Counted from the stretch's first letter, positions 3,788-63,276 are shown. The stretch is DNA of 64,000 nucleotides from an uncultured candidatus Porisulfidus sp. (GCA_965215125.1 OZ244052.1:1472001-1536000); one strand, 5' to 3'. The notes: generated by a model not told the origin, from the letters alone. Made by a program: numbers and translations.

Positions 3788-3813
3788 GGGCGGACATGCA
3801 AGTCCGCCCCTAC
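3788..3813 (-). repeat. REP-like palindrome (module C), GTAGGGGCGGACTTGCATGTCCGCCC
   Basis: 5' GTAG followed by a GGGCGGAC/GTCCGCCC hairpin. Identical to 54851-54876 and near-identical to 63218-63243. Confidence 0.85.
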
Positions 3814-3849
3814 CACTCTATGAAATACTTTTTCAACAGTCCCAAGTTC

Positions 3850-4113
3850 CTACTGTGCGACCGTCAACACGACACTTGCCAAGAACACGCCGATAATTGA
3901 GGTCATTGCGACGATGCTCCCGATGAATAATGCAACGCCCCACTTACTAATGTCTGCGCGGAGTTCCGATTGGGCTGCTTTTACTTCCGCTATTTCGGAT
4001 CTTATCTCAGCCTTGAAGTCCGACATATCGGATCTTATCTCGGCCTTGAAGTCTGATATGTCAGATTTTATTTCAACTATCATTTCGTATAGTTTTTCGT
4101 TGGTTATATTCAT
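3850..4113 (-). CDS. Small coiled-coil protein with C-terminal TM helix (DUF1640/CCDC90/Bdr-like)
   Basis: 11-aa repeats (KAEIRSDMSDF) encoded by a 33-bp tandem repeat starting at 3995, 4028 and 4061. C-terminal KWGVALFIGSIV TM segment. Paralog of 23758..24249. Confidence 0.75.
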   Translation of the reverse strand: MNITNEKLYEMIVEIKSDISDFKAEIRSDMSDFKAEIRSEIAEVKAAQSELRADISKWGVALFIGSIVAMTSIIGVFLASVVLTVAQ

Positions 4114-4263
4114 CTCTTTTCTCTTATTGTTAAATTATAAATAAACATCTTGCTAAAGCAAGGTGTGCTATAGGAGAAACAGTATATTCCGGTGCTTATT
4201 GGGCACGATTCGGCAGACTGACGAATGGTAGCTAAAAACCGACGAACGGGATAACGGTATATT

Positions 4264-4614
4264 CTAGGTCTCGCTGGGTCCGTCAAATGCCCCGACAATC
4301 CACTGTGGTTTTGCTTTGCTCTGAATAGCAACAATATCAAAACGGCACGGTCCATCCCACGGATGTGCTTGTAAATAGCTCTCGGCAGTATTCGCAATCC
4401 GAGATTGTTTATGACGGTCAACGCTTTCTGCAGCACTCCCGTAATTATCGTGTTTGCGATAGCGCACTTCAACGAATACCAGAATATCTTTATCTTGCAT
4501 AATCAAATCTATCTCGCCGTGCCGAGAGCGATAATTGCGTGCAAGAAGTTTAAGGCCGTGTCGTTTTAAGTATTTAAGTGCAAGATCTTCGGAGTAGTGC
4601 CGTCGTCCGTCCAT
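4264..4614 (-). CDS. yraN: YraN family protein (UPF0102)
   Basis: Motifs RNYRSRHGEIDLIM, LVFVEVRYR and CRFDIV; conserved rsmI-lpoA-yraN synteny. Confidence 0.93.
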   Translation of the reverse strand: MDGRRHYSEDLALKYLKRHGLKLLARNYRSRHGEIDLIMQDKDILVFVEVRYRKHDNYGSAAESVDRHKQSRIANTAESYLQAHPWDGPCRFDIVAIQSKAKPQWIVGAFDGPSET

Positions 4615-4615
4615 C

Positions 4616-6475
4616 TTAGTATTGCTCGCGAACCAACGCAACGGGTTTTCCTTTATTAAATTTCGCCCAGTTCAAACGTCTATGCAGACGGCGATTTTCA
4701 TCTGCCGAAATATAGCCGGTTGCCCCGTGGAGTTCGGTACTGCTAATTGAAATTCGTCGTATCGTGTTGATCAATCGGTATGCATCTTTACCTAGTGCAT
4801 ACAGTCTAGGAAGTTTTTTGACCTTATCACTATCCGGGTAGCGCACGCGATCAACGATAAAAGGAATATCGTTATAGATTAAGCCGTCGAGTTCGCGCAA
4901 CAAGTCTTCTTTGCCCGGTTCATAGGCGTGCGACGACGCATAAACCGGAAGTTCGTCGGCATAATAAAACTTCATCAAAGGGTAGATAAGAACTGCGTTT
5001 TGATAGTTGGCGAATAACACTGCGGCGTTAATGTCGTCTCGTATACGCGGCTTGAAGTCCAATTTTTTCCCTACAACCCGTTCTATATCGGTATACCGTT
5101 GTATGCTTTGATTTAAGTCGAATAGCGACTGCACGCTGGGTGCATAATCTTCAAACTCGGTATCGTAATAATAGACCTCCTGTATCGTACCTTCCAGCTG
5201 CAGGTATACATCGGAGAATCGGCGCACCATGCGCTTGCCCCATTCGTTATCGGCAGCCATAACTACGACCGAGTTATATTTTTTGTCCAATAGTTTTTTG
5301 GCAATTTGTTCGGCTTCGTCTTCCGGATAAAGCCCGAATTGAAAAACTTCGCCTTTCGCGATGTGTTTCGCATCGCTTGCATAATTGAGTGTGATGGCGG
5401 GTGTCGGTAGCGGACTATGCTTTAACAATGCGTCAACATTCTTTTTGAGCAGTGGTCCGATGACCATATCGGCTCCTTTACGGGTAGCTTCTTGATAAAG
5501 TTCAACGATATTCCGATTTTGGTTTGAGTCGTAGATATCAATCTGCATTTCCTTTTGCGAGACGGTCGGTGAAGTATTTTGAGCCTCTTTTTGCGCAGCC
5601 AGAAAACCGTCTTTGATCGTTCTGCCGATGTTTGCATACCCACCGGTCAAAGGCAAGATCAGGGTAATTTTTTCGGGATTGAAATCAAAGTATGCCCAGC
5701 GTGAGAGTAGCTCATCAAAGGCGTAATCCGGCACTTCCAAGAGGCTGTGTTCGTCAACCCAAAGTTGATAATCCTGCTCCAGTCGGGTTGTGTCTATTTG
5801 TACCGGAGTTGCCAGCAGTGCGAGTTCAAGCCACGCCCTGAGTTCTTGGTTTGCCTCCTCGCTTGCTAGTCGTTCACGGGCATCTTCGGGATTTATAGCA
5901 ACCACGGTTTGCCAAATTTTGTCGGTGTTCGGTGAGTATTCGTCTTCACTCAAGAATTTTTTGATTCCTATATAGGTAGTCAGACTTTCTATATACCTAC
6001 GAGTATTTTTCAAGCCGTCGGCGCGCAACATCAATGCTTCTTTTTTGAGCACATCGTCGCCTTCGTCTATTAATGCTTCGGGCAATAGTGAGACTACCTT
6101 CTCGGGTTGTTTGATTTGTCTATAGAAAGTGGCAGTCAAAATTCTTTTATCGAGTACGGCTTGAGGTTCCAGTGCCTCTTCGTTTATTGCGATTAATTGT
6201 TTGTGGGCATTCAATAGATGTTGTCCTTTGATCAACATTCGGGAACTCTCTAGTTGCATTTTTTCTTTATGCGGTGAAGGCAGGTTGGCTGCAGCCTTCC
6301 ATAACACTTCTGCTGCCTGTAGATAGCGAGCTTCGTCTGCCAAGTTTTTTGCTTGAACATAGACATAATTCACCTTAATTTCATCTATAGGGTTGAGGCC
6401 GTGCAACTGAATATCGGCGCAACCACTTAGCAGCAACCCGATTAAAATAATGACAAAGTGTTTCTTATATTGCAT
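4616..6475 (-). CDS. lpoA: Penicillin-binding protein activator LpoA (lipoprotein)
   Basis: Start at 6475 gives the lipobox LLLSGC. Motifs ILPLTG, IGPLLK, PEDEA, RLYALG.DAY and GATG; divergent from rsmI. Confidence 0.88.
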   Translation of the reverse strand: MQYKKHFVIILIGLLLSGCADIQLHGLNPIDEIKVNYVYVQAKNLADEARYLQAAEVLWKAAANLPSPHKEKMQLESSRMLIKGQHLLNAHKQLIAINEEALEPQAVLDKRILTATFYRQIKQPEKVVSLLPEALIDEGDDVLKKEALMLRADGLKNTRRYIESLTTYIGIKKFLSEDEYSPNTDKIWQTVVAINPEDARERLASEEANQELRAWLELALLATPVQIDTTRLEQDYQLWVDEHSLLEVPDYAFDELLSRWAYFDFNPEKITLILPLTGGYANIGRTIKDGFLAAQKEAQNTSPTVSQKEMQIDIYDSNQNRNIVELYQEATRKGADMVIGPLLKKNVDALLKHSPLPTPAITLNYASDAKHIAKGEVFQFGLYPEDEAEQIAKKLLDKKYNSVVVMAADNEWGKRMVRRFSDVYLQLEGTIQEVYYYDTEFEDYAPSVQSLFDLNQSIQRYTDIERVVGKKLDFKPRIRDDINAAVLFANYQNAVLIYPLMKFYYADELPVYASSHAYEPGKEDLLRELDGLIYNDIPFIVDRVRYPDSDKVKKLPRLYALGKDAYRLINTIRRISISSTELHGATGYISADENRRLHRRLNWAKFNKGKPVALVREQY

Positions 6476-6533
6476 CTGTATATACTCATAGAAAGAGAAT
6501 TTATTTTCGCCGATTGCTGTTATTCTACTATAC

Positions 6534-8116: not shown

Positions 8117-8117
8117 T

Positions 8118-9396: not shown

Positions 9397-9431
9397 CATC
9401 ACCGGTTGCATCATCAAATAAAGGAGGGAAC

Positions 9432-9974
9432 ATGGCAACAGAAAATGTATCAAGCCCCGGCCAGCAATCGATAGACTTAAATAATTACGATGTCGGGGTT
9501 ACGCAAACTTCGAGTAATCATCAAATGAATATAGATCTGGCGGTTCAGTTGATATTTCTACAATACAACAAACTGATGAATTTACGCACGCAAGATAAAT
9601 TGGAGCAGGTCAAAGCCACCTTAGCCGAGATGAATGCGTGCCGTGAGATGTATAGTCAGATGAAAGCGTTGCAGCAGAAGGCCGGCGGGAAGGGCACTTC
9701 GACGATGCCTCAAGACATGTTGGATTTTCTAAATGCCCGAGGTATTAAACACGATACAACGGGTAATGATAATATACATAATCACGATGAGTGGGACGTA
9801 AATATGCAGTATCTTGATTCGTATATGCAAAAAATAAGTGGTCAGAATAAAACACAAATGCTGGAATTGAACCAATGTGTGGAAGACGGTAACAATGCAC
9901 TAAGAGAAGTCTCTACCGTATTTTCGAAGTATTCGGAGATACTTGAGTCCATCATTCAAACAATTAATAGATAA
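9432..9974 (+). CDS. T3SS tip/filament protein, EspA/SseB/Bsp22-like (copy 1)
   Basis: About 180 aa with N- and C-terminal coiled coils. The C-terminus (QNKTQMLELNQ...EILESIIQTINR) resembles Bsp22/SseB. Lies just before the translocon chaperone and SctE. Confidence 0.72.
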   Translation: MATENVSSPGQQSIDLNNYDVGVTQTSSNHQMNIDLAVQLIFLQYNKLMNLRTQDKLEQVKATLAEMNACREMYSQMKALQQKAGGKGTSTMPQDMLDFLNARGIKHDTTGNDNIHNHDEWDVNMQYLDSYMQKISGQNKTQMLELNQCVEDGNNALREVSTVFSKYSEILESIIQTINR

Positions 9975-10009
9975 ATGATACAAGTTTAATTATTAAACAG
10001 GAGGGAAAT

Positions 10010-10555
10010 ATGTCAACAGAAAATGTATCGGGACCCGGTCAGCAATCGGTAGACTTAAATAATTACGATGTCGGGGTTACGCAAACCTCGAGTAATCATC
10101 AAATGAATATAGATCTGGCGGTTCAGTTAATATTTCTACAATACAACAAACTGATGAATTTGCGTACCCAGGATAAATTGGGGCAGGTGAAAAACACCTT
10201 AGCCGAGATGAATGCGTGTCGTGAGATGTATAGTCGGATGAAAGCATTACAGCAGCAGGCCAAGACCAGTGGTAAGAATGTTGCGATGCCTCAAGACATG
10301 TTGGACTTTATCAACGCTCGCGGCGTTAAACACGATACAACCGATAACGATAACTTACATAACGCGGATCAGTGGGACGTAAATATGCAGTATCTTGATT
10401 CGTATATGCAAAAAATAAGTGGTCAGAATAAAACACAAATGTTGGAATTGAACCAATGTGTGGAAGACGGCAACAATGCACTCAGGGAAGTCTCTACCGT
10501 GTTTTCGAAGTATTCGGAGATACTTCAGTCTATCATTCAGACTATTAACAGATAA
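10010..10555 (+). CDS. T3SS tip/filament protein, EspA/SseB/Bsp22-like (copy 2)
   Basis: Near-identical tandem paralog of 9432..9974; differences are mainly in the central region. Confidence 0.72.
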   Translation: MSTENVSGPGQQSVDLNNYDVGVTQTSSNHQMNIDLAVQLIFLQYNKLMNLRTQDKLGQVKNTLAEMNACREMYSRMKALQQQAKTSGKNVAMPQDMLDFINARGVKHDTTDNDNLHNADQWDVNMQYLDSYMQKISGQNKTQMLELNQCVEDGNNALREVSTVFSKYSEILQSIIQTINR

Positions 10556-10582
10556 ATATTTTGCATCCGGGGGAGTAATTTT

Positions 10583-11059
10583 ATGGACAGCTTAAAAGCT
10601 GTAGAATCAATAACACAAATAATGTCGGATTATGCCGACAAAGTCTTACAGGGCAAAAAGACTGTTTATGAGGCTAGAGGCATAGATCAACAAGCAATGG
10701 ATAGTTTGTATATGGTTGCTCAGCGTTTCTATAAAAATGGAAAATACGAAGATGCAATGAGAATTTTCCGCCAGCTGTGTTTTTACGACCATAATAATAT
10801 TCATTACTGGCTCGGTTTAGGGTATAGCCAAAAGATGTTGAAAGACTACAGAGATGCGATGACCACTTTGAGTTTTGTACTAGCTTATCTCGACGATAGT
10901 GATAAAGATGCGGAGGTTTATCTACAACTTGCCGAGTGTTGCAGTTTCTTGGGTAGAAACGAAGAAGCCGAGGAATATGCTACCGAAGCAATGAAAAGCG
11001 ATGACCGGGCCATAAAAGATCACGCCGGCGTATTAATAGAAGCGGTTAATAATCGTTGA
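10583..11059 (+). CDS. Class II T3SS translocator chaperone (SycD/LcrH family, TPR)
   Basis: TPR pattern LY..A..FY..GKYEDA..IF..LC.YD....YWLGLG; adjacent to SctE. Confidence 0.88.
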   Translation: MDSLKAVESITQIMSDYADKVLQGKKTVYEARGIDQQAMDSLYMVAQRFYKNGKYEDAMRIFRQLCFYDHNNIHYWLGLGYSQKMLKDYRDAMTTLSFVLAYLDDSDKDAEVYLQLAECCSFLGRNEEAEEYATEAMKSDDRAIKDHAGVLIEAVNNR

Positions 11060-11081
11060 ATTACCTAAGGAGGAAATAGAT

Positions 11082-12392
11082 ATGGCAAATGATGATATTG
11101 GTTTGAATACGGCAACTGCGCCTTCGGTACGGGGCACTCCATCATCCGGCACTGCGACGGTATCTTCGGTATCGCATTCTAAGAGTCCACGGGTAGATGC
11201 AGGTGCTACCGGTGCCGGCCCGGTATACGGTGGTCAAACGACTAACGACGGACCGGTTCTTACTTTGCCGAAAACGATGGCAGCGAGTGTGATGACTGCA
11301 TTGTTGATGTCGTTGCAGCAGAAAGTGTCGTCGGAGCGTATAAAAGATGCCAAAGAGGAGATAAAAGCACAAACCGCAGATGCACAGCAAAAGGATCAAA
11401 AAAGAATAGACGACATAGAAAAAGCAATAAAGGCGAGAGAGAAAGCCAAGCATCATGGTCTACTAGGAAAGATATTCGGATGGGTTGGTGTTGCCTTGAC
11501 TTATGTTGCGGCGGCGGTTGTAACCGTAGCTTCGGGTGGGGCTGCAGCAGCACCCGTGCTTGCGGCAGCCGTATTGATGACCGGGTTGATGATCGCACAA
11601 GAAACAGGCGGTATGGATAAACTTGCAAAAGCTATGCACCTCGGTAAGAAGGCGGAAATGGGTTTGATGATAGGTTTGACTGCGGCAATTTTGGTCGTTA
11701 GCTTGGTAGGTGTGGTAGCGAGCGGTGGTAGTGCTGCCGTGGGCATGGTGTCTTCAATTGCGAGTGCGGTGTCGCGGGCGACTGCAACCGGTGCCGAAAT
11801 AGGTGCCAGTGCTGCGGACATGACGGCGGCGGGTTCGGAAACCGCAAGTGTCGTTGCCGACATTAGTGCCGAAGCCACCGAAGGTGCTTCGGAAAGCATC
11901 GAGATGAGTGCCGATGTCGGAGAGATTGCATCGTCGGCTTCCGATGCCGGTGATGCAGTAGAGGAAACGAGTTTTAGCGGGACCGAGGCCGATTCCGAAG
12001 TCAACGAGGCTAGTTCGGAGGCAAGCGAGGTAAGCGACGAGGCATCCGATAGCAGTAAAGCACAAGAAATAGCGGAAAAATCTGCGAGCAGAACGCAAAG
12101 AGTTGCGGCGCGAGTCGGAAATTTGGTCAATGTTGCATCGGCGGGTACTTCGGTCGGTAGCGGTATTGAAGGTATTCAAACGGCAGAGTCCGAACACGAC
12201 GCTTCAATGGCTGATGCGGATGCGACCGATCAACAAGCCTCTATAGCACAAATAGAGGCAATACAAGCTGCGGCGATTAGAAAGCTAAAAAAGATTCTTG
12301 AAGATATGCAAGCCAATGCAAGCACCATATTTTCTATCGCCTCTTCGGCGAACAAACTAACCGAAGAGATAACCAAGGGTTCTTCCGCCTGA
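11082..12392 (+). CDS. sctE: T3SS major hydrophobic translocator SctE (YopB/SseC/BopB family)
   Basis: Coiled coil followed by GLLGKIFGW and two hydrophobic segments (VASGGAAAAP), then a C-terminal coiled coil; flanked by SycD-type chaperones. Confidence 0.85.
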   Translation: MANDDIGLNTATAPSVRGTPSSGTATVSSVSHSKSPRVDAGATGAGPVYGGQTTNDGPVLTLPKTMAASVMTALLMSLQQKVSSERIKDAKEEIKAQTADAQQKDQKRIDDIEKAIKAREKAKHHGLLGKIFGWVGVALTYVAAAVVTVASGGAAAAPVLAAAVLMTGLMIAQETGGMDKLAKAMHLGKKAEMGLMIGLTAAILVVSLVGVVASGGSAAVGMVSSIASAVSRATATGAEIGASAADMTAAGSETASVVADISAEATEGASESIEMSADVGEIASSASDAGDAVEETSFSGTEADSEVNEASSEASEVSDEASDSSKAQEIAEKSASRTQRVAARVGNLVNVASAGTSVGSGIEGIQTAESEHDASMADADATDQQASIAQIEAIQAAAIRKLKKILEDMQANASTIFSIASSANKLTEEITKGSSA

Positions 12393-12421
12393 TTACCATA
12401 TAAACAACGGGGGGTATAAAA

Positions 12422-12946
12422 ATGAATAATTTGCATGCTAGGCTTGCGGAAATATCGGCACTGCCGGAAAGCGATGCTAAATGGCAAAAAATAGAGGACT
12501 TGGCAACAAATCTATTTGAAGAGGGCGTATCGCTCGGCACGATCAAAGGTTTTACGGTAGACGAAATAGAGGCTGCCTACCACATGGCTTACGGTCTTTA
12601 TCAGCAAAGGCGTTTCGATGAGGCGTTGAAATTATTTCAATATTTCGCTATACACGAGCATACCGACAGACGCTTTTGGATGGGGTGGGCTGCGTGCTTG
12701 CAAAAACTTAGAAAATACGAACCTGCAATCAAGGCATACAGTGTTGCGACTATGCTTGATATAGGGCAACCCGACGGGCCTTTCCACGCTGCCGAGTGTT
12801 ATATCGCAATGAAGGATTGGGATAACGCAAAACAATCTTTGGAAACGGTGCTAACCATTGCCGAAGGAGAAGATGCGCACGTAGCCTATGCCGAGCGTGC
12901 AGTTAATCTTATAGAACTAGTCAGTAATAATCAAAAGGAGGAATAA
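12422..12946 (+). CDS. Second SycD/LcrH family chaperone
   Basis: Motifs EIEAAYHMAYGLYQQ..FDEA..LF, RFWMG and PFHAAEC. Confidence 0.9.
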   Translation: MNNLHARLAEISALPESDAKWQKIEDLATNLFEEGVSLGTIKGFTVDEIEAAYHMAYGLYQQRRFDEALKLFQYFAIHEHTDRRFWMGWAACLQKLRKYEPAIKAYSVATMLDIGQPDGPFHAAECYIAMKDWDNAKQSLETVLTIAEGEDAHVAYAERAVNLIELVSNNQKEE

Positions 12947-12948
12947 TC

Positions 12949-13407
12949 ATGTCATACAGAGAAGACTTTAAGAACATACTCAAGCATTTCGGTGCCGGTA
13001 TCAACTTGCCTGATCTGAACTTGGACGAGGATAACCGATGTAACCTTTTCTTCGACGAAGTGCCGGTGAGTATAGAGGTCAGTCCCAATGAGCAATACGT
13101 TTATATGTATTCTTATTTAGGCGATGTGCCGCTAGCCAACTCCGAGAGTATGGGGAATAAATTACTGGAGGCTAATTACATATACGGAGAAACCGAAAGA
13201 TGTACATTGGGAATTCAGAATATTTCACGGAAGGTTGCATTGATCTGCAACGAGAGAATCAAGGGAATGGACTTGTCGGATTTTGAGCAATCTTTGGAGA
13301 ATTTTATCAATGTAGCGGAATATTGGATGAAAAGTCTAAGTGCCCCCGAAGCGCAAAGCGATAAAACTACCGACCAAGATGTAGATTCAAGTGTGATGAA
13401 AGTTTAA
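12949..13407 (+). CDS. Class I T3SS effector chaperone (CesT/SicP family)
   Basis: Acidic 152-aa protein with L.LDE.N.C.L.FD, LLEANY...T...TLG and LENFINVAEYW. Confidence 0.88.
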   Translation: MSYREDFKNILKHFGAGINLPDLNLDEDNRCNLFFDEVPVSIEVSPNEQYVYMYSYLGDVPLANSESMGNKLLEANYIYGETERCTLGIQNISRKVALICNERIKGMDLSDFEQSLENFINVAEYWMKSLSAPEAQSDKTTDQDVDSSVMKV

Positions 13408-13449
13408 TCTTTATCACAGCCGGAAATTAAACAATGAGGAGGGGGACTC

Positions 13450-13689
13450 ATGGCAAACGAGAAATTAGAATTTTCTCTGGAAGAGAAACTTAAAGCAGAT
13501 GATCAAGGAGAATTAAAGCAAAAAATACAAACTCGATTAAACGATGAGATTCTGGAGATAGACAAAACCTTGAGTAATGGTGTTGCTCCGGAGGAATACA
13601 CTTCGCTTAATCAAGTCAGGATAGGTTTGCAGAGTGCACTCGTAGTACTCGAAAAAGTTTGGCAGCAACTTCATAAAGACAAGGCTTAA
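13450..13689 (+). CDS. T3SS needle co-chaperone, YscE/EscE/SsaE family
   Basis: 79 aa with the pattern SLEEKL...G..PEEY..L......SA..VL, in T3SS context. Confidence 0.75.
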   Translation: MANEKLEFSLEEKLKADDQGELKQKIQTRLNDEILEIDKTLSNGVAPEEYTSLNQVRIGLQSALVVLEKVWQQLHKDKA

Positions 13690-13727
13690 ACAGCCATAAA
13701 TATTTGTCGGAGGAGGAGGGATGAAAA

Positions 13728-15866
13728 ATGCCGGTTGATATTAGCCACTACAGAAAGCTTGCGGATCAGAGCGGTAGCATAGAAACTGCCGGGAAAACCG
13801 TACATTTATCAAAGTCGGGACAATTAGTATTAGGCGGTAATAAATTTTTCGGCAGGGTAGTCTCTTGGTTCAAGGGTTTTAGAACACGGCAACATATCGC
13901 AACTCGAAATGATTTTATAGAGGCACTGAACACGCACTACGGTAAGTTTATAACATCTCAAGTAACTACTCAAGGCTGGGTACATCAACACTCAAAAAAA
14001 CCATTGACCACGCGCGAAGTTTTCATGGCATTTAGGAAGATTGATGACTTGGCATTGGAGAATAAGGAAAAAAATGAACAACTTGCCTCCCGTTACGACG
14101 GTGTGGGGATTGAAGATTATCAAACCGAGTCGGATTCTACAAACTACTTAAAATCTCAATTATCCAATACCTTAAGAGAAATGTTTCCAAACTCCCCATC
14201 GGGAGAAGATGCCGAAGAACTAGAAACATATATGGACATTGCCGATGTAGGAAGGAAAATAAAAAGTAAAATAATGGAAAAAGGCGATAACGGTAAATTT
14301 AGGGTCACCAAAAAGGAGGCGGACAACATTGCCAAGCAAGTTTCTCAAGATGAGGCTGTGAAAACCTATAAACACATAATGGCGAATCAGCATTTTATTT
14401 TCCGAGAGAATTCCTCTTCTCTGAGTCAAAGAACCGTCGACTATTTGAACGGTAGGATAGAAGCCGATCTTATGGCGGAAATGTATAAAGCGGGTGACGA
14501 AAATCCTAAATTTCCGAGTCGAGAGCGGGTTGCCGAAATAGCTCAAAGTACTCAAGACGAATTATCGAAATTCATAGATGCCGAAAAAATTGCTCGGTCT
14601 CTAAATATCCCCGACGGCGAATTAAGAACGGAAGTTATAACTTTTTTGGCAAAGAGTGAGCTATCTCTATCTCAAATAAAAACGGCATGGGAGACAGGGG
14701 TGCAGATGCAGCCACACTTCAAAACAATCGCCGATGCCAATTCAACCGAAGAGCAATTAGAGAAAGCAATCAACGAATACACTAATGCGGTTTCCGAGTT
14801 ACAGTCTAAAGACGATATTGAAGATATAAGTAGCGAACTTCGCACACAGCGTAGCACGCTCATGATGATGGCCCAGGGTGGAGATTGGCGCGCGACGATG
14901 GGAAAAATACACCAACAAATTACCGCACCGGGTGCTTTGAATTCTTATATCAGAGCATTGAACCATTACCGGCTATCTTTCCCTGAAAGCGATGCCTATA
15001 AGAGGCAGGAAGCAGAGCAACCGGATTTTTATAGACCCGGTTTGCGAAGAGCCGACACATTTTCTACATGGATGGAATCGTTGGGCTTTGCGTCTGCGGC
15101 GATGTTGGGCAAATCGGGTGGAGAGGCGGAAATCGTGGCTCGGAGCGCACCATTGGAATCATCGTCCGAGGTAGGAGATAGAACGCTTAATTTGATGCGA
15201 AACACCGGCATTAAAATGCCAACCCCGGACCGCATAGGGCAGAGTGGAAGCGGAACTTTTTGTGATGCAGCAATTAAATATGTAGAGGATCAGCTGTCCG
15301 ATGGCAAGACAGGTCCTTTGGAAGAAAATGATATTTCCGAACAGTGCCTATTAGATATAGGTGTTCGCATACCCGCTTATTTTAACGGGGTGCCGGCATC
15401 GAGTGAAAAGGCGGAAGTGGTAGAGCAACTTAAAGAGTTTTGTGCTACCGACGGAAAGTTAAACAAAGACATGTTGTTCGCTATCTCGCAGTTTCATCAA
15501 GGTTCGATCGGGGCTGTGTTTAAGGTTTTCCAGAGAGAACAGATAGCACCGGTGCATGGTCAGTTTATAGCTTCCCTAGATGACAGTAAAACTACATTTT
15601 ATTTTAATAAAAATAAAGATGGTTCCGTCTCTGTAAGAATAACATTTGAAAGGAATAAGCCGTTATTCTTTGTATCGCAATATGATACTCTTTCTCATAA
15701 AGCTCAAGTTCGTCAAATAAATTTGGATAGGGATGCGAGTGGACTTGGATTAGATATGGAATTCCTATTAACACCCGAACAATTTAGTGCCGATAGAGAT
15801 AAATTCCCTCCACCCAAGGTTACAAATCTAACTTACCGCTATAGCTTATATGAGAATAAAGAGTGA
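13728..15866 (+). CDS. Putative T3SS effector
   Basis: N-terminal RVVSW...FIEALNTHYG...KPLTTR resembles the SptP SicP-binding domain. Lies close to a class I chaperone gene. Confidence 0.65.
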   Translation: MPVDISHYRKLADQSGSIETAGKTVHLSKSGQLVLGGNKFFGRVVSWFKGFRTRQHIATRNDFIEALNTHYGKFITSQVTTQGWVHQHSKKPLTTREVFMAFRKIDDLALENKEKNEQLASRYDGVGIEDYQTESDSTNYLKSQLSNTLREMFPNSPSGEDAEELETYMDIADVGRKIKSKIMEKGDNGKFRVTKKEADNIAKQVSQDEAVKTYKHIMANQHFIFRENSSSLSQRTVDYLNGRIEADLMAEMYKAGDENPKFPSRERVAEIAQSTQDELSKFIDAEKIARSLNIPDGELRTEVITFLAKSELSLSQIKTAWETGVQMQPHFKTIADANSTEEQLEKAINEYTNAVSELQSKDDIEDISSELRTQRSTLMMMAQGGDWRATMGKIHQQITAPGALNSYIRALNHYRLSFPESDAYKRQEAEQPDFYRPGLRRADTFSTWMESLGFASAAMLGKSGGEAEIVARSAPLESSSEVGDRTLNLMRNTGIKMPTPDRIGQSGSGTFCDAAIKYVEDQLSDGKTGPLEENDISEQCLLDIGVRIPAYFNGVPASSEKAEVVEQLKEFCATDGKLNKDMLFAISQFHQGSIGAVFKVFQREQIAPVHGQFIASLDDSKTTFYFNKNKDGSVSVRITFERNKPLFFVSQYDTLSHKAQVRQINLDRDASGLGLDMEFLLTPEQFSADRDKFPPPKVTNLTYRYSLYENKE

Positions 15867-15886
15867 GGGAAGGAAATTGATATGTC

Positions 15887-17638
15887 ATGAGGATATCTAT
15901 ATTTGCGCTTTTGCTCCTCGCTATAAGCCCCGCACATCCGCAATCCTCACAACCCGATTGGGTTGATTCTCGCTACGGGTATTTTGCTCAAGACAAAGCA
16001 CTGCAGGAAGTCATCTCCGATTTTGCTGCGGAATTAAAATTACCGGTGATAATCAGCCCTGCTGTTACCGGTGTAGTCAACGGTGATTTCGCGACCATGA
16101 AAGCGATAGACTTTTTGTCTACGCTCGCACGCGTCTACCGCTTGATGTGGTTTTACGATGGTACCGTTCTACACATCTACAGCACTAGGGAGGTTAGAGA
16201 AGAGATTATCCCGCTGGCTGCCGATCGGATGACCGATATTGAAACCGTATTTAAGGAACTCAAGGTGATAGGAACGCACTACTACTGGAAGACTATTCCT
16301 AACCGCAATCGTGTCGAACTATCCGGACCACCTAGATTTATAGAACTAGTGGAATCGGTGATAGGTTCCGCCGAAGAGAAGCCATCGGACATCATTAGCA
16401 CTTTGCCACCTTTGGATAACCATGTGGTGAAGATATTCAAACTTAAATATATTTATGCATCCGGTGATAGTCGGCAAAAGACGCTTGATATCGCACAACT
16501 ACTCGGTCGTATCATGAATGTAGGCTATTATGTAACCGAAGGCGGCAGCGATGCGGTTAAAAAGCCGCATGACATTCAAAAACTACTGGGTAGTGGTTTG
16601 TCTCCCAGCTACGGAGAAAATGCCGATGGCGATAAAGAAAAATCCTCGCCTCAGCCGCAAAGCCCGCCCGCCCCGACTTCAAAGTCCGATGGCGCATATA
16701 TCATTGTAGACACTAGATTGAATATGGTCATCGTACGAGATCAACCCAAACGTATACCCTTATACGAAGCGTTGATAGATCAACTGGATAAACCGCTCGA
16801 TCAAATAGAAATAGAAGTTCTCATTTTAGATATCAACGACGATGCGACAAACACCTTGGGTATAGAATGGAATTACGAGTCCGGAGATTTTGCCTATTCT
16901 CAAGGTGGGATTTCAATCACCGAGATGAGCGCAGCGCAAAGTCGTCAATTTAGAATCCAGTTGGAAGCTCTAGAGACACAAGGGAAAGCAAACATATCTG
17001 CCCGTCCCTCGGTGTTGACTTTGGATAACCACGAAGCCGAGTTTTCTAATCAGCAGACTTTTTATGTAAAGTTAGGCGCACAAAGTGCGGAAAGTCAAGC
17101 GGTGGATTTAGTGCCCATCACTTACGGGGCTACGCTCAAGGTTAAACCTCATGTCATCTATCGCGATAAAGAGTCGCATCAAATACTTTTGACTCTGGAT
17201 ATACAAGACGGGAGACAATCACCCGACGACCAAAGGATTGACGGTGTGCCTGCCATTACCAACAGCACCATTAAAACCCAGGCGATGGTCAGCAACGGTA
17301 AAAGCCTGCTTATCGGGGGTTATAAGGTTAATCATGAATCGGCAGGCTATAGAGGTGTGCCGGTATTGGGCTATTTACCGATTGTCGGATTATTATTTAG
17401 AGTTCGGAACACGGTGAATTTGGATACCCGTCGCTACTTTTTGATTAGCCCTAAGCTGGTTGACTCGGAAGTGGTCTTTAAGTCCGATGTAGACGCAGCG
17501 GAGATATTAAGTCGCGACGATAAAAGTTATGAGGATAGATATCACCGGCAGCCGAAGCAGCAAGAAACACCTCGCTCGAATAATCAACCACCGCAAAACC
17601 CGAATTCGTATGAGCGAACCCATTCAGGACCGCCTTGA
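15887..17638 (+). CDS. sctC: T3SS outer-membrane secretin SctC (YscC/HrcC)
   Basis: Signal peptide; motifs WFYDG..L.IY, SGPPRF, ARPSVLTLDN.EA, TFYV, SLLIGGY and RYFLISP. Confidence 0.93.
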   Translation: MRISIFALLLLAISPAHPQSSQPDWVDSRYGYFAQDKALQEVISDFAAELKLPVIISPAVTGVVNGDFATMKAIDFLSTLARVYRLMWFYDGTVLHIYSTREVREEIIPLAADRMTDIETVFKELKVIGTHYYWKTIPNRNRVELSGPPRFIELVESVIGSAEEKPSDIISTLPPLDNHVVKIFKLKYIYASGDSRQKTLDIAQLLGRIMNVGYYVTEGGSDAVKKPHDIQKLLGSGLSPSYGENADGDKEKSSPQPQSPPAPTSKSDGAYIIVDTRLNMVIVRDQPKRIPLYEALIDQLDKPLDQIEIEVLILDINDDATNTLGIEWNYESGDFAYSQGGISITEMSAAQSRQFRIQLEALETQGKANISARPSVLTLDNHEAEFSNQQTFYVKLGAQSAESQAVDLVPITYGATLKVKPHVIYRDKESHQILLTLDIQDGRQSPDDQRIDGVPAITNSTIKTQAMVSNGKSLLIGGYKVNHESAGYRGVPVLGYLPIVGLLFRVRNTVNLDTRRYFLISPKLVDSEVVFKSDVDAAEILSRDDKSYEDRYHRQPKQQETPRSNNQPPQNPNSYERTHSGPP

Positions 17639-17647
17639 TAGCCCTTT

Positions 17648-19082: not shown

Positions 19083-19106
19083 ATTCCCCTCCTTCGGAGG
19101 GGTGGC
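19083..19106 (+). repeat. Left half of repeat module A
   Basis: ATTCCCCTCCTTCGGAGGGGTGGC. The matching right half GGGGTGGTC is at 19499-19507. Confidence 0.8.
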
Positions 19107-19188
19107 AATAGCATGAAAACTAACTTTGTAGATGGTAATAAAAATGGGGTAACGTCAGTAATTTACACACAGCAAAGGGAGATTAGAT

Positions 19189-19422
19189 ATGTCAGAAATA
19201 GCACTTTACAATGCACTAACGAAGCTAGGGTTAGACCATAACGAAGCAAAGGAAGCAGTTGCGGATATTGCCGGCACAAAGGAAGTGGCAACGAAGGTGG
19301 ATTTAGCAAACTTGGAGACAAGGCTAACGAATAGAATATATGCAGTGACCGGGGTGATAATCGGGGCAGTCGGATTGATGATAGCAGTTGCAGGATTGAT
19401 GATAAGGTTTTTTATGATGTGA
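19189..19422 (+). CDS. Small DUF1640/CCDC90-like protein with C-terminal TM helix
   Basis: VATKVDL motif, short coiled coil and TM tail. Paralog of 30384..30611. Confidence 0.8.
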   Translation: MSEIALYNALTKLGLDHNEAKEAVADIAGTKEVATKVDLANLETRLTNRIYAVTGVIIGAVGLMIAVAGLMIRFFMM

Positions 19423-19540
19423 AGCACATGCATTTACAACCGACAATAACAGGCTCGAAGAACCTTAATACATAGTACAAAATGTAAAACCTTTCCATGG
19501 GGTGGTCGCCGAAGCGTCTGCACAAATACAGTATCGGTAC

Positions 19541-19676
19541 ATTCCCCTCCTGTAGAGGGGTGGCCTATGCATTTTGCAATGCATGCGTTTAGCAGTCATG
19601 TTGAGGTTCTGAACAAAGTCACGCCGATTGACCTGCTGGTTCAATCGGCGGTTCTATTCAGCCTGATGGGGTGGTC
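19541..19676 (+). repeat. Module A interrupted by 94-bp module B (19565-19658)
   Basis: Near-identical to 30137..30272. B carries TGCATT-TTGC-AATGCA and CGCCGATTGA...TCAATCGGCG hairpins. Confidence 0.9.
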
Positions 19677-23648: not shown

Positions 23649-23695
23649 ATTCCCCTCCTGTGGAGGGGTGGCAGGCTTCGCCTGACGGGGTGGTT
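23649..23695 (+). repeat. Intact 47-bp module A
   Basis: ATTCCCCTCCTGTGGAGGGGTGGCAGGCTTCGCCTGACGGGGTGGTT, containing two hairpins. Confidence 0.9.
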
Positions 23696-23757: not shown

Positions 23758-24249
23758 TCAGACCACAAAAATCACAACCGTACTGACAATAGAACTTACC
23801 GAAACAACGATGCCGACGGCTAACGCGATACCCCATTTATAGATGTCATCCCTGAATTTAGAGTGTTCTGCTTTCATAATTGCTATGTCGGCTTTTATAT
23901 TCACAATGTCGGTTTTCATAATCGCCATATCGGTTTTCATATCTGCGATGTCGGCTTCAACCTTGTTTAGTCTTAATTTTATATTTTCTATATCGGTTTT
24001 CATAATCGCCATCTCAGCTTTCATAACCGTCATCTCGGCTTTCATATCTGCAATCACCGCCTTTATGTCAACAATTTCGTTTTCAACATTGCTTAGCCTC
24101 GAGTCTATACCCTCCATGTATAAACCTGCTTTGTCCGATTGTGGAACATGTGTTTCCGATTCTAGAAAGTTCAGCTTTGCCTTCATTTCAAGTACCATTT
24201 TATAAATAGTTTCAATCGTTAAGTTATCTGCATTTTCTATACTTGCCAT
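23758..24249 (-). CDS. Coiled-coil heptad-repeat protein with C-terminal TM helix (DUF1640/Bdr-like)
   Basis: Heptads MKAEMAI, MKTDIEN and MKTDMAI; KWGIALAVGIVV tail like 3850..4113. Confidence 0.78.
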   Translation of the reverse strand: MASIENADNLTIETIYKMVLEMKAKLNFLESETHVPQSDKAGLYMEGIDSRLSNVENEIVDIKAVIADMKAEMTVMKAEMAIMKTDIENIKLRLNKVEADIADMKTDMAIMKTDIVNIKADIAIMKAEHSKFRDDIYKWGIALAVGIVVSVSSIVSTVVIFVV

Positions 24250-24393
24250 TTTTAACCTCTTAAGTTGAATTATAAGAAAGAGCCTGCGTTATAGCAAGCC
24301 GTCTAATCATGATTGGATTATAGGAAGTGCTTACAGTGCTGTTTTGCATTTCCGACGAACGGCACTATAAATATGGATGACCTGCAATTATAA

Positions 24394-24440
24394 AACCACC
24401 CCGTCAGGCGAAGCCTGCTACCCCTCCGAGGGAGGGGAAT
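24394..24440 (-). repeat. Intact module A, reverse orientation
   Basis: AACCACCCCGTCAGGCGAAGCCTGCTACCCCTCCGAGGGAGGGGAAT is the near reverse complement of 23649-23695. Confidence 0.9.
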
Positions 24441-24517
24441 GTAATGGCACTGTACTTGTGCATAAATGTGGTAGAATTATTTATCTTGCATCTAAGGTTA
24501 TTGCAAGAGGAGCGATT

Positions 24518-27470: not shown

Positions 27471-27496
27471 GCCATCGCGACAGCATCTTATATATA

Positions 27497-30124: not shown

Positions 30125-30136
30125 ACAAACTAGACA

Positions 30137-30272
30137 ATTCCCCTCCTGTGGCGGGGTGGCCTATGCATTTTGCAATGCATGCGTTTAGCAGTCATGTTGA
30201 GGTTCTGAACAAAGTCACGCCGATTGACCTACCAGTTCAATCGGCGGTTCTATTCAGCCTGTCGGGGTGGTT
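30137..30272 (+). repeat. Module A interrupted by 94-bp module B (30161-30254)
   Basis: Near-identical to 19541..19676. Confidence 0.9.
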
Positions 30273-30383
30273 TCCACGCTTCGGGCGTACAAAATAATTT
30301 TAATAATGTATGATGAAGAATGCCAAATTGCTTCAATCTACGCTATAATCTGATAACATACTGTAACTAATTGAGAAACTATT

Positions 30384-30611
30384 ATGACTGATATAGCCCT
30401 GTACGAAGCACTAAAGAAAATCCCCGACTTATCCGATGCTGAAGCAAAGGAAGCTGTAGCCAATGTTGCAAGTTCAAAAGATGTGGCAACTAAAATGGAT
30501 ATAGTGAGGGTAGAAAGTGCTATTGCAGAGGTAAAGACGGAGTTAAAGTATCTGCGATGGCTGATTGTGGTGGTGGTAGGCGTTGCCGTAGGGATAATTA
30601 AATATCTGTAA
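30384..30611 (+). CDS. Small DUF1640/CCDC90-like protein with C-terminal TM helix
   Basis: MTDIALYEAL...EAKEAVA...VATKMDI; paralog of 19189..19422. Confidence 0.8.
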   Translation: MTDIALYEALKKIPDLSDAEAKEAVANVASSKDVATKMDIVRVESAIAEVKTELKYLRWLIVVVVGVAVGIIKYL

Positions 30612-30624
30612 ATTGATACATTAA

Positions 30625-32097: not shown

Positions 32098-32119
32098 ACC
32101 CCCCCTAACACGACGAACT

Positions 32120-32227
32120 ATTCCCCGCCTATGGAGGGGTGGCAGGCGCAGCCTGACGGGGTGGTTGTGAAAGTATCTGCACAATGTTACGCCGATTAAC
32201 CTACCAACCCAATCGACGATTTTATTC
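32120..32227 (+). repeat. Module A (32120-32166) followed by a degenerate B right-end hairpin (32190-32227)
   Basis: ATTCCCCGCCTATGGAGGGGTGGCAGGCGCAGCCTGACGGGGTGGTT, then CGCCGATTAACC...AATCGACG. Confidence 0.85.
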
Positions 32228-47650: not shown

Positions 47651-47920
47651 GTAAGGGCGGATATTACATTTTGTAATGTACGAATCTAGCAATCGCGTTA
47701 AGGAGGGCTGTTGAAAAACTATACACAAACTGTAGGGACGGTACATTCCCCTCCTTTGGAGGGGTGGCAGGCTTCGCCTGACAGGGTGGTTGTCAAATAT
47801 GGAAACCATCATCGGGTGGCGCAAAGCGATTGGATTTGTGCAAGTATTAAACTTTGGGGTAAATCATAGTTGCCGATTGACCTACCGGTTCAATCGGCGA
47901 TTATGATTTGCCCGCCCTTA
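47651..47920 (+). repeat. Multi-level nested palindromic repeat mosaic (C-like arms enclosing B ends enclosing A at 47745-47791)
   Basis: Outer inverted repeat TAAGGGCGG/CCGCCCTTA, a TACATT-TTGT-AATGTA hairpin, an intact A, and a 24-bp-stem hairpin at 47857-47913. Confidence 0.8.
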
Positions 47921-49270: not shown

Positions 49271-49440
49271 GGGGCAGTTCTATTGGCCTGCCACCCCGGC
49301 ACAGGGGGGAATAGACCACCCCATGAAAAGGCTTTGCATTTTGTAATATGTATCAAGACTCTGGACAACGTTACGCCGATTGACCTGCTGGTTCAATCGG
49401 CGGTTCTATTGCGCCTGCCACCCCTGCACAGGAGAGGGAT
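49271..49440 (-). repeat. Tandem reverse module A copies, the second interrupted by a 77-bp B (49334-49410)
   Basis: GCCTGCCACCCC...GGGGGGAAT, then GACCACCCCATGAAAAGGCT-[TTGCATTTTG...GGTTCTATT]-GCGCCTGCCACCCCT. Confidence 0.85.
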
Positions 49441-53762: not shown

Positions 53763-54105
53763 CGATAAGCGGAAAGTTGAAGTAAGTATTATGGGCAAAC
53801 TTTATTCCGTCCTATGCCCTCTGCAGCAACAAGAAGAGCTAGAGGAAGCGGTTTCATTCCTGAACAATCAAGCAGAAGATCTCAAGCATAGAGCCCAAGG
53901 CATGAAATCTTCGGAAGTGACCTGGAACCGAGACAATCTGCTGGCGGTAATCGCCCTAAATCTAAGCTATGAGCTAATAAAGCTCAATACTAGGGTTTCC
54001 GGCAAAGCAATGGAGGCTGAAAAGCTGGTCGAGCGGATTAAAAACAGTTTTGCGCAATCGGATGTTGACGATGCGGCGCATAAGATTTCTGAGATATCCC
54101 TGTGA
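53755..54105 (+). CDS. zapA: Cell division protein ZapA
   Basis: Pattern V.IMGK.Y...CP..Q...L..A...L and AV.ALNLSYE; upstream of 6S RNA. Confidence 0.9.
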   Translation: MNDDKRKVEVSIMGKLYSVLCPLQQQEELEEAVSFLNNQAEDLKHRAQGMKSSEVTWNRDNLLAVIALNLSYELIKLNTRVSGKAMEAEKLVERIKNSFAQSDVDDAAHKISEISL

Positions 54106-54279
54106 TGTACGTTAATCATCCATATAATCCTTTACCGTATTTAATACTTAAGGTGTGTTGCGATGATGCCGGTGTGCATGCTCAAACTAATGAGAAGCCT
54201 AAAGGTATTAGACGCAGCACCATTCCTATATCTGAGGGACTAGGATTCCGGGTGAAAACGGCATTGTCGGGGATGTCTC
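54091..54279 (+). ncRNA. ssrS: 6S RNA
   Basis: Terminal stem GAGATATCCC/GGGATGTCTC; core GGTGTGCATGCTC...GAGAAGCC matches gammaproteobacterial 6S; canonical position after zapA. Confidence 0.85.
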
Positions 54280-54378: not shown

Positions 54379-54768
54379 ATGGCTACGAAACGTAGAACTA
54401 TAAAAAGGCTAGTGAAGAAAAAGTCGGACGCTAATAAAAAGCGGTCGGTACTAGCCAAACGTAAAGCGGCGAGTGCCGCTCTGAAGAAGAAGGCTGCTCC
54501 TAAGACAAAGTCCACAACTAAGAAGAAGGCTGCTCCTAAGACAAAGTCCACAGCTAAGAAGAAGTCTACGACTAAGAAGAAGGCTGCTCCTAAGAAGAAG
54601 TCTACGACCAAGAAGAAGGCTGCTCCTAAGAAGAAGTCTACGACTAAGAAGAAGGCTGCTCCTAAGAAGAAGTCTACGACTAAGAAGAAGGCTGCTCCTA
54701 AGAAGAAGTCTACGACTAAGAAGAAGGCTGCTCCTAAGAAGAAGTCTACGACCAAGAAGAGAAGATAA
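54379..54768 (+). CDS. Histone H1-like, Lys-rich nucleoid protein (HctB/Hq1/AlgP-like composition)
   Basis: AAGGGG RBS; KKKAAPKKKSTT-type repeats; highly basic. Confidence 0.8.
   Translation: MATKRRTIKRLVKKKSDANKKRSVLAKRKAASAALKKKAAPKTKSTTKKKAAPKTKSTAKKKSTTKKKAAPKKKSTTKKKAAPKKKSTTKKKAAPKKKSTTKKKAAPKKKSTTKKKAAPKKKSTTKKRR
54484..54753 (+). repeat. 36-bp coding tandem repeat (7 full units plus a half unit)
   Basis: AAGAAGAAGGCTGCTCCTAAGAAGAAGTCTACGACT-type units with no spacers. Confidence 0.95.
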
Positions 54769-54783
54769 TATCTCTTTTGTAAT

Positions 54784-54808
54784 AAGCCCTGATGTCAAGT
54801 CAGGGCTT
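54784..54808 (+). terminator. Putative terminator hairpin after the histone-like gene
   Basis: AAGCCCTGA-TGTCAAG-TCAGGGCTT; the U-tract is weak. Confidence 0.5.
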
Positions 54809-54838
54809 GTTGCATATATAACCACTGATTGCTGGTAC

Positions 54839-54909
54839 ATTGCCCTCCCTGTAGGGGCGGACTTGCATGTCCGCCCTTAGGGTGGCAGGCGCAGCCTGAC
54901 GGTGTGGTT
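54839..54909 (+). repeat. Module A with REP module C (54851-54878) in its first hairpin loop
   Basis: ATTGCCCTCCCT-[GTAGGGGCGGACTTGCATGTCCGCCCTT]-AGGGTGGCAGGCGCAGCCTGACGGTGTGGTT. Confidence 0.88.
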
Positions 54910-62562: not shown

Positions 62563-62570
62563 GTGTATCT

Positions 62571-63068
62571 ATGCTATACAATTTTTTACTCGGATTAGAG
62601 ACCATACTTTCAATTATCATCGTGGTATTGATTTTGTTGCATCGCGGACGAGGCTCCGAAGCGGGTGCCGTGTTCACCGGTAGTACTTCTGCCACGATGT
62701 CCGGTTCCAGAAGTTCTACATCCTTTTTGACCAAGTTGATTGCGTCACTTTCGTTTGTATTTATACTTAATAGCCTCAGTCTAGCTTATATTGCCAATCG
62801 TGATTTCGGAAGCGGTAGCGTGATATTGGAAGAAGTAACCGAAACCGAAGATCCGGCTATAGATGATCTTTTTATCGACGGCGAGGATGACTTGCCCGTA
62901 GACGACGAGATATTCGTCGACGAATTGATAGACGATATACCCGACGAGATTATAGATGCGGAACCTGAGGGTGATACCTCCGATATCCCTACTCTGGAGG
63001 AACCTGTCCAAGAAACCGAAGCCGAAACCAACCCTCCGTCGGATATTCCGAGCGACGAGAATCCTTGA
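62571..63068 (+). CDS. secG: Preprotein translocase subunit SecG with long acidic C-terminal tail
   Basis: Pattern ILLHRGRG..AGA.F..S...FLTK; tpiA-secG-tRNA-Leu synteny. Confidence 0.92.
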   Translation: MLYNFLLGLETILSIIIVVLILLHRGRGSEAGAVFTGSTSATMSGSRSSTSFLTKLIASLSFVFILNSLSLAYIANRDFGSGSVILEEVTETEDPAIDDLFIDGEDDLPVDDEIFVDELIDDIPDEIIDAEPEGDTSDIPTLEEPVQETEAETNPPSDIPSDENP

Positions 63069-63093
63069 CGTTTGAGAAAACTTTAAGTACTTT
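63065..63093 (+). promoter_or_regulatory. Putative sigma70 promoter for tRNA-Leu
   Basis: TTGACG-N17-TACTTT. Confidence 0.45.
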
Positions 63094-63112
63094 TTAGTAT
63101 GAAATAAACGAT

Positions 63113-63197
63113 GCCGATGTGGTGGAACTGGTAGACACGCTGTCTTGAGGGGGCAGTGGCAATAGCCGTGCCGGTTCGAGTCCGGCCATCGGCACCA
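63113..63197 (+). tRNA. tRNA-Leu(GAG)
   Basis: Acceptor stem GCCGATG/CATCGGC, anticodon arm CTGTC-TTGAGGG-GGCAG, long variable arm, GGTTCGAGTCC and encoded CCA. Confidence 0.97.
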
Positions 63198-63205
63198 TAG
63201 AAACT

Positions 63206-63276
63206 ATTCCCCTCCTTGTAGGGGCGGACTCGTATGTCCGCCCTTAGGGTGGCAGGCGCAGCCTGACAGGGTGGTC
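63206..63276 (+). repeat. Module A with REP module C (63218-63245) in its first loop, 8 bp after the tRNA
   Basis: Same composite structure as 54839..54909. Confidence 0.88.

Follow-up and report, generated by a model that had tools for sequence, protein, structure and literature searches.

The closest described relatives of the repeats considered here are the repetitive extragenic palindromic sequences (REPs) of Enterobacteria and Pseudomonas, which are known together with REP-associated tyrosine transposases (RAYTs; TnpA-REP, of the Y1 HUH type), with REP doublets forming hairpins (REPINs) and with the mosaic clusters called bacterial interspersed mosaic elements (BIMEs). Insertion sequences (ISs) of the IS110 family, such as IS621 and the ISPpu9 and ISPpu10 elements of Pseudomonas putida, insert into REPs by means of a bridge RNA. 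These three phenomena (REP/RAYT systems, BIME mosaics and IS110 elements in REPs) are already known and are textbook matter; the origin of mosaics made of unrelated hairpin repeats is unsettled. Here, we analysed a window of 64,000 nucleotides (nt) from an uncultured candidatus Porisulfidus sp. (GCA_965215125.1, OZ244052.1:1472001-1536000), in which a first-pass annotation had recognized three palindromic modules, A, B and C, nested in one another's hairpin loops. Our analysis establishes that these repeats form a REP/BIME-like mosaic which is real and non-random. The window probably holds a sample of a genus-wide population in which at least three families of short hairpin repeats, unrelated to one another, are represented, and we favour the view that a few founding entries at hairpin tips produced the composites, which then multiplied whole.

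The window sits in a single-contig genome of 2.22 Mb that is 99% complete, hereafter G000. The relatives sampled comprise 31 genomes, one per species; G003 is the closest relative of G000, and G001 and G004 are sister species. About 10% of the bases of G000 lie in 12-mers occurring at least eight times, a figure which counts IS elements too. Searched at gathering thresholds, Rfam returned no family for any module in the window.

Hairpin repeat families and their closest relatives

Module A is a double hairpin of 46-47 nt, ATTCCCCTCC-n3-GGAGGGGTGGCAGGC-n3-GCCTGACGGGGTGGT(T), built on three blocks (CCCCTCC, GGAGGGG and GGGGTGG), and its single-stranded DNA folds into two hairpins (z = -3.7). At all four places where the first-pass annotation had put an intact copy, the sequence reads as claimed (Table 1). 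A 36-base A pattern with up to three mismatches has 97 matches in G000, against none for the reversed-pattern control, well above what chance would give, and the two ends of A lie 46 nt apart in 97 cases, 70-71 nt apart in seven and 135 nt apart in 20. A stricter pattern of the whole element, with up to five mismatches, retrieves 99 intact copies, and CCCCTCC/GGAGGGG hairpins with a 3-nt loop number 157. Some copies form tandem arrays with periods of 47, 48, 58, 69 and 80 nt; no consistent duplication surrounds the copies. In G001, long tandem arrays of A+B1 composites (described below; period of about 215 nt) and of A (about 68-136 nt), located at G001:C1:39205-41262 and 32100-33852, far exceed any array in G000.

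Among the 31 relatives, only four species, all of one genus, contain A. The same pattern with up to three mismatches has 97 matches in G000, 238 in G001, 90 in G003 and 127 in G004, and none in G002 and the 26 genomes of other genera, so that 27 of the 31 lack A. The exact 42-nt core of A (36 specified bases) is present in at least 121 stretches of a species-representative genome collection, whose record titles name Cyanobacteria, Chlorobiota, Firmicutes, Beta-, Gamma- and Deltaproteobacteria, Endomicrobia, Nitrospinota, Fibrobacteres and others. The genus would have acquired A horizontally. Rfam, searched with A at E values up to 10, gave nothing meaningful.

Outside the genus, this core is shared with double hairpins that accompany genes for DUF559 nucleases. 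We surveyed 80 loci, from which 22 titled Candidatus Porisulfidus or Candidatus Oxydemutatoraceae were set aside, and scanned against Pfam 150 of the 153 open reading frames (ORFs) of 95-230 aa lying at most 400 nt from an A copy. Ten ORFs, corresponding to eight distinct genes at eight places among the 58 remaining loci, encode DUF559 proteins; they stand beside or between A copies in Chlorobiaceae, Sideroxydans, Gallionella, Polaromonas, Fibrobacteres, a deltaproteobacterium and two gammaproteobacteria, and several adjoin fragments of type I methylases. Unlike these cassettes, A in the genus studied here serves as the shell of composites and reaches 90-238 copies, yet no small DUF559 gene was found in G000, G001, G003 or G004. 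We thus rejected such a gene as the driver of A in the genus. In the A-rich genomes, DUF559-like sequence is limited to weak C-terminal domains of frames 1091-1867 aa long. The sole match in G000 (38 bits, inside a 1753-aa frame; the C-terminal part of an ORF of about 1,724 aa at G000:C1:1082305-1087476, adjoined by a small methylase-like ORF) is probably unrelated to module A, since similar large frames also occur in A-free relatives.

In its architecture, A resembles the intrastrand-triplex repeats known as BoxC, PIT or TM_ECO (Holder et al., 2015, PMC4666352, who cite previous studies of Hoyne and Maher). It combines a pyrimidine block with a purine block, which a second G-rich block mirrors, and it is likewise highly conserved, widespread and found at loci that differ between relatives. 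Read backwards, the third block matches the purine block with T opposite A; this block symmetry is what the sequence shows of a possible triplex. In contrast to TM_ECO, A misses the pattern given by Holder et al. (2015), CCCTCNCCC N3-6 GGGNGAGGG N3 GGGNGAGGG: each of its blocks measures 7 nt, and the second 'loop' is a stretch of 18 nt that holds a 5-bp hairpin, which is the location of B.

A free copy of C reads TTAC GGGCGGAC atgcaa GTCCGCCC CTAC, that is, GTAG followed by an 8-bp stem with a 6-nt loop. Its consensus combines the GTAG tetranucleotide with an imperfect palindrome, GTAGGGGCGGAC-n6-GTCCGCCC(C/T/G)TA, and it folds into one hairpin (-11.5 kcal/mol, z = -3.8). G000 has 52 intact C hairpins with a 6-nt loop and at most one mismatch per arm, and a long unit, E-C-F, occurs 11 times with an intact C. 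The copies in the window are located between ORFs.

The Y1 transposase domain (PF01797) has no match in G000, nor in G003 or G002, and a tblastn search of G000 with a RAYT-like protein of G004 gave a best E value of 0.65. In the sister species, we identified Y1-domain ORFs of about 131-300 aa, five in G004 and one in G001; among NCBIfam families they score highest with the REP-associated tyrosine transposase, reaching 58-60 bits where the cut-off is 80. One of those in G004 is preceded by four tandem forward-C units and followed by reverse-C units; others have a second REP type, GTAGGGGAGGGC, on their flanks. The first-pass annotation had described C as REP-like, and the RAYT-like genes of the sister species, flanked by inverted C arrays, indicate that C is a true REP; its enzyme is missing in G000 and G003. 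The likeness to REP/RAYT systems thus extends to the GTAG and imperfect palindrome, to dozens of extragenic copies and to these genes, and it ends at the absence of a cognate RAYT from G000 and at the sub-threshold scores of the sister proteins. As in BIMEs, the clusters mix several motifs. The E-C-F unit recurs, and tandem C units stand beside RAYT-like genes. Unlike in BIMEs, the modules are nested in hairpins and not merely adjacent, and the partners of C, namely A and B/D, are not REPs.

The third palindrome, D, is specific to the genus. It reads CGCCGATTGA-n9-TCAATCGGCG, in its full form AATAGAACCGCCGATTGA-n9-TCAATCGGCGGTTCTATT, and 127 D hairpins with a 9-nt loop are present in G000. B corresponds to D with one outer arm replaced by a segment that begins with TGCATTTTGYAAT. 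The single B module of the first-pass annotation turned out to be two subfamilies, B1 (91 nt) and B2 (75-76 nt), which account for its forward and reverse orientations within A; the two same-orientation and one opposite placements in A's second hairpin were correct. Their sequences suggest that B1 and B2 probably derive from D. In G000, 22 of the 27 B1 copies have both A flanks, four the left flank only and one neither; among the 19 B2 copies, 17 are bounded on both sides by A, in reverse orientation. Outside A there are about six B-like copies that differ in length. B is almost never free.

Composites, their junctions and orthologous sites

Within a given composite type, as within a given B subtype, the junction is always the same, imperfect one and the orientation does not vary. 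In A+C, C lies at the first hairpin of A, and GGAG of the right arm of that hairpin is missing. All 15 left and 14 right A+C junctions in G000 are of a single type; three carry an IS110 element in C, three carry D in C's loop and two have hairpin 2 filled too. The placement of C in A's first hairpin in the first-pass annotation was thus right, but the insertion is not a clean one. In A+B1, B1 occupies hairpin 2, and AGGC of its left arm is missing; the left join reads GGC/CTA TGCA and the right one TTCTATTC/AGCCTGA (slashes mark the joins). In the reversed composite, A+B2, the flank adjacent to B reads ACCACCCCATGAAAAGGCTT in place of ACCACCCCGTCAGGC. The C hairpin dominates the fold of A+C, in which hairpin 2 is kept (z = -3.2), and A+B1 keeps hairpin 1 and loses hairpin 2 (z = -5.5), whereas the reversed composite folds no better than shuffled sequences (z = -1.3).

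The nesting goes further. C is found five times in the loop of D, with CCTA on both sides; H1 and C itself each occur in C's loop, and other inserts in D-type loops. Three copies of A contain C which in turn contains D, and two have both hairpins filled. A can also be the guest: 25 of the 99 intact copies come directly after a half C arm, GTAGGGACGGTAC, and 16 of the 25 also have the E motif upstream; at these places A replaces the loop and right arm of C in the long E-C-F unit. Nesting at hairpins is real, recurrent and reciprocal between unrelated families.

The history of one composite can be read from its left join. An intact-arm form, GGTGGCAGGC-nnn-TGCATTTTG, is present in 80 copies in G001 and in 46 in G004, with no occurrence in G000, G003 or G002. 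The copies of G000 and the one G003 copy inspected read the AGGC-deleted form, GGTGGC-CTA-TGCA. On this sequence evidence, B1 was once placed exactly in the loop of hairpin 2, as the intact-arm joins of G001 and G004 indicate, and the 4-nt deletion then arose in the lineage of G000 and G003, whose copies descend from the deleted form. The intact-arm join in the sister species and the deletion in G000 and G003 thus argue that the composites multiplied after a single founding event and not by repeated targeting.

We also compared nine intergenic sites between orthologous positions. All nine have repeats in the four species, with different content, and four of them (63206, 32120, 30137 and 23649) are interpretable, the rest being rearranged beyond alignment. 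At 30137, G000 has A+B1 alone; in G003 a worn A precedes A+B1, and nothing but a 38-nt variant of A is present in G001 and G004. Here, at the sole site where this can be judged, the sequences indicate that A+B1 arrived as a unit beside an older, worn A. The site at 32120 holds A in G000, A-left+B1 in G001 and A-left+C in G003. The A+C of G000 at 63206 corresponds in G003 to the same A lacking the 25-nt core of C, and there hairpin 2 contains a large insert.

These results divide the central proposal of the first-pass annotation, a hierarchy of elements targeting one another. Measured against the refuting conditions that the annotation itself had set, the outcome is mixed, and its reading is partly supported. 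The nesting stands, and the junctions are non-random, with free C (52 copies) and empty A (about 99) both present in G000. What is not supported is targeting as a continuing habit, in view of the fixed junctions, the AGGC deletion and the rarity of free B; the composites have mostly spread as fixed units.

Insertion sequences and the origin of the composites

Present-day ISs enter the same hairpins. G000 contains 13 matches to IS110 domains, among which the subfamilies ISa and ISb have four full copies each, with DEDD (PF01548) and Transposase_20 (PF02371) domains, a long 5' non-coding region and no terminal inverted repeats. All eight copies lie between GGGCGGA-CA and CA-TGCAAGTCCGCCCCTAC (the right-hand flank is also given as CA-TGCAAGTCCGCCC and CA-TGCAAGTCC), that is, in the loop of C with a CA core, and three of the eight are inside A+C. 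The suggestion that IS110 elements target REPs thus holds here. An IS1380-like element of 1.8 kb (PF13701) is inserted in A at TGGCA, between the two hairpins, with a 5-bp TGCCA/TGGCA duplication in four of four copies and in both orientations, and a 1.1-kb rve-type IS is found inside two ISa copies. A third IS110 subfamily, ISc (G000:C1:550234-551573, 1056924-1058263 and 1427340-1428679), abuts GTAG with its left end; one copy is preceded by the left arm of A, and other copies are interrupted by the IS1380-like element.

Two roles of ISs in the origin of the modules were considered and rejected. C is the target of IS110 and not an excision scar or a fusion of IS ends, because the sequence of an empty C is that of a filled site without the IS, with a CA core. 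Nor are A, B and C miniature inverted-repeat transposable elements of a resident IS: the ends of the five IS types compared (three IS110, one IS481-like and one IS1380-like) differ from the module ends.

Inspection of the ISb 5' region by eye suggests how ISa and ISb may recognize C. Four stretches stand in order: GGACGGACA, matching 8 of 9 positions of the target left side plus core; TTGCATG, antisense to CATGCAA at 7 of 7; AAGGCATC, matching the right IS end at 8 of 8; and TATCTG, antisense to the left IS end at 6 of 7. ISa has TGGTATG at the position of TTGCATG in ISb, and three of four ISa targets read CATGCCA. The order of these guide-like stretches (LTG, RTG, LDG, RDG) matches the bridge-RNA layout of PMC11208160. 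We infer that ISa and ISb could pair with C by a bridge RNA. They would resemble IS621, ISPpu9 and ISPpu10 in that they always insert at the same point in a REP hairpin, flank themselves with a 2-nt core at either end and have guide-like strings in the expected order; unlike in IS621-type systems, the core is CA and not CT, and the guides come from inspection and not from covariation.

The most probable scenario, in our opinion, is that new DNA entered at hairpin tips and loops on few occasions. B would have entered A's second loop, once per orientation, C the first hairpin of A and the loop of D, D the loop of C, and A the long C unit. Each composite would then have multiplied, either as a unit or by conversion of resident A copies into the filled form, and living ISs would keep entering the same hairpins. 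The entries may have been insertions at single-stranded loops. Those of C share GTAG/CTAC-like strings (CCTAC in D's loop, GTGGAGGGG in A), which would fit a RAYT-type single-strand enzyme, or else microhomology. Conversion is a live sub-model because A+B1 composites have the hairpin-1 loop variants of free A (TGT, TTC, TTT and TAT) and likewise its outer contexts.

Several observations weigh against this scenario. These shared variants and contexts are predicted by conversion or by repeated entry of B, not by pure transposition of a unit. No enzyme for A or B was identified in the genus, and G000 is devoid of a RAYT, so that current mobility of C there is unproven. The junctions are imperfect, with arms partly lost and no clear target duplications, and short strings (CCCCT, CCTA) are shared at the joins; illegitimate recombination therefore fits as well as insertion. 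Most orthologous intergenic regions are too scrambled to align. The 'empty' form of site 63206 in G003 has no match in G000, and for this reason it may be a deletion and not the state before insertion. Finally, the bridge-RNA reading is drawn from inspection of two related IS subfamilies, and Rfam, searched on the IS110 loci with E values up to 1, returned no match.

We find it unlikely that A, B and C are non-autonomous elements that repeatedly target one another's stem-loops, each composite being an independent insertion. Such targeting would readily explain why one orthologous site holds A, A-left+B1 and A-left+C in three species, why two copies of A have both hairpins filled and three contain D in C, and why A+B1 varies like free A; the strings at the entry points of C might also reflect the choice of a RAYT-type enzyme, and IS110 demonstrably targets C's loop. 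It is harder to reconcile with one imperfect junction per composite and one orientation per B subtype, with an AGGC-deleted junction in G000 whose intact-arm form is absent from G000 and G003, with the near absence of free B and with the arrival of A+B1 as a unit beside an old A in G003. G000 moreover has neither a RAYT nor a small DUF559 gene. The first-pass annotation had suggested looking for RAYT, IS110 or DUF559 genes flanked by these modules, and of these the RAYT-like genes were found in the sister species only.

An even less probable alternative dispenses with insertion altogether. The mosaic would result from illegitimate or homologous recombination, slippage and gene conversion among hairpin repeats in intergenic hot spots, with breaks occurring at the hairpins, for instance where host hairpin nucleases have cut them. 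The composites are dispersed chromosome-wide with unrelated flanks, which means that a copying step to new places is needed, and the inner modules sit at loops far more often than random breakage in elements of about 46 nt predicts. The shared strings at joins (CCCCT, CCTA, TAGGG), the partly lost arms, the different content of all nine orthologous sites and the tandem arrays of A would all be expected of recombination, and a similar triplex-type repeat is tied to rearranged loci with no mobility gene found near it, according to Holder et al. (2015, PMC4666352). Recombination would account neither for RAYT-like genes with C arrays in sister species nor for A itself, whose import into the genus is clear and which has reached 90-238 copies there.

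About as doubtful is the idea that A is a mobile shell crossing phyla, with its second hairpin loop as a cargo bay. A host nuclease would cut the extruded hairpin, and repair would copy a filled A into an empty one. The cargo would be B1, B2 and one small gene in the window and, elsewhere, the DUF559 genes between A copies. If true, such hairpin homing would be a way for selfish DNA to spread to hundreds of copies without a transposase or any element-encoded enzyme.

That the composites are selected functional structures (compound terminators, mRNA stabilizers or protein-binding sites) whose nesting was selected for its fold is very improbable, since the intergenic, partly operon-like location of the window copies and folds more stable than shuffles are offset by both orientations relative to neighbouring genes, site content that differs between sister species, destruction of the outer hairpin, the lack of an Rfam match and a reversed composite that folds no better than shuffles.

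Module sites, neighbouring genes and significance

All module copies in the window are intergenic (Table 1), and several stand in operon-like gene rows.

Table 1. Repeat modules in the window, with positions counted from its first nucleotide.
Feature	Position	Strand	Remarks
Free C (REP) in E-C-F unit (~3735-3844)	3784..3813	-	CTGTTGAAAAAG motif at 3828-3839, minus strand
A-left (19083-19106) ... B2-type tail and variant A 3' end	19083..19506	+	
A+B1 composite, B1 (19565-19659) in hairpin 2, left arm AGGC missing	19541..19675	+	
Intact A	23649..23695	+	Orthologous copy in G003 with different loop letters
Intact A, reverse	24394..24440	-	No A at the corresponding place in G003
A+B1 composite between the type II secretion system gspB-like and gspE-like genes	30137..30271	+	
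Intact A, then worn B/D 3' part (32176-32233)	32120..32166	+	
E motif, half C arm (GTAGGGACGGTAC) and intact A (47745-47791)	47708..47791	+	A in place of C loop and right arm of the long REP unit
A+B2 composite, B2 (49335-49410) opposite to A	49315..49440	-	Preceded by A-like remnant (49286-49312)
A+C composite, C at 54851-79	54839..54908	+	
A+C composite, C at 63218-46, directly after tRNA gene (63113-63194)	63206..63275	+	

The statement in the first-pass annotation that the window holds no transposase is borne out for the 43 of 45 ORFs of at least 110 aa that were scanned, the frames at 34013-47632 and 1-384 being outside the scan. The former, on the plus strand, is open over about 4,540 codons. 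The segments 10583-19051 and 24377-32094 contain parts of a type III secretion system (tetratricopeptide repeat chaperones, an SseC-like translocator, a CesT-like chaperone, a secretin and a YscD-like protein) together with a row of type II secretion genes, in which repeat modules lie between the gspB-like and gspE-like genes and directly after gspE. The type III cluster is headed by two adjacent paralogous ORFs of about 180 aa (9426-9976 and 10004-10557) with 90-91% DNA identity and no Pfam match.

Other ORFs lie close to the modules. The shell at 19083-19506 encloses a 77-aa ORF (19189-19419, plus strand) at the position usually taken by the D hairpin. This ORF and another at 30384-30608 (plus strand) encode small proteins of 75-77 aa with a C-terminal hydrophobic tail and no Pfam match; the family has 19 tblastn matches in G000, of which 14 have repeat-module motifs within 260 nt. 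The idea of a cargo gene as a general rule was ruled out, as only one of the 19 matches, the window copy, is inside an A/B2 shell. Two coiled-coil ORFs on the minus strand (3853-4113 and 23761-24249), with repeats of 7 residues (21 nt) or 11 residues (33 nt) and a hydrophobic tail, have weak coiled-coil matches only in Pfam, and the second is bracketed by the inverted A pair at 23649 and 24394. At least 13 tandem copies of an 18-nt unit (54439-54796) fall in an ORF without Pfam match (54454-54840, minus strand), and a 6S RNA gene (54094-54277) is located just upstream.

A literature search, which was not exhaustive, found nothing on A-type hairpins with DUF559 genes or on nested REP composites. 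To that extent, we did not find earlier descriptions of a pan-phylum hairpin multiplying without DUF559, of reciprocal nesting or of lineage-marked amplification of composites.

The genus offers a dated natural experiment. A was imported whole and then multiplied to 90-238 copies in the absence of the gene that usually accompanies it; it gained hairpin passengers, and the resulting composites multiplied, with a 4-nt marker separating two lineages. Sister species with and without a RAYT make it possible to compare directly how REPs behave once the enzyme is lost, and ISa and ISb provide a concrete, testable prediction of guide-to-target pairing on a natural REP hairpin. For genome annotation, blocks of 46-135 nt of this kind are to be read as repeats, and not as genes or regulatory RNAs.

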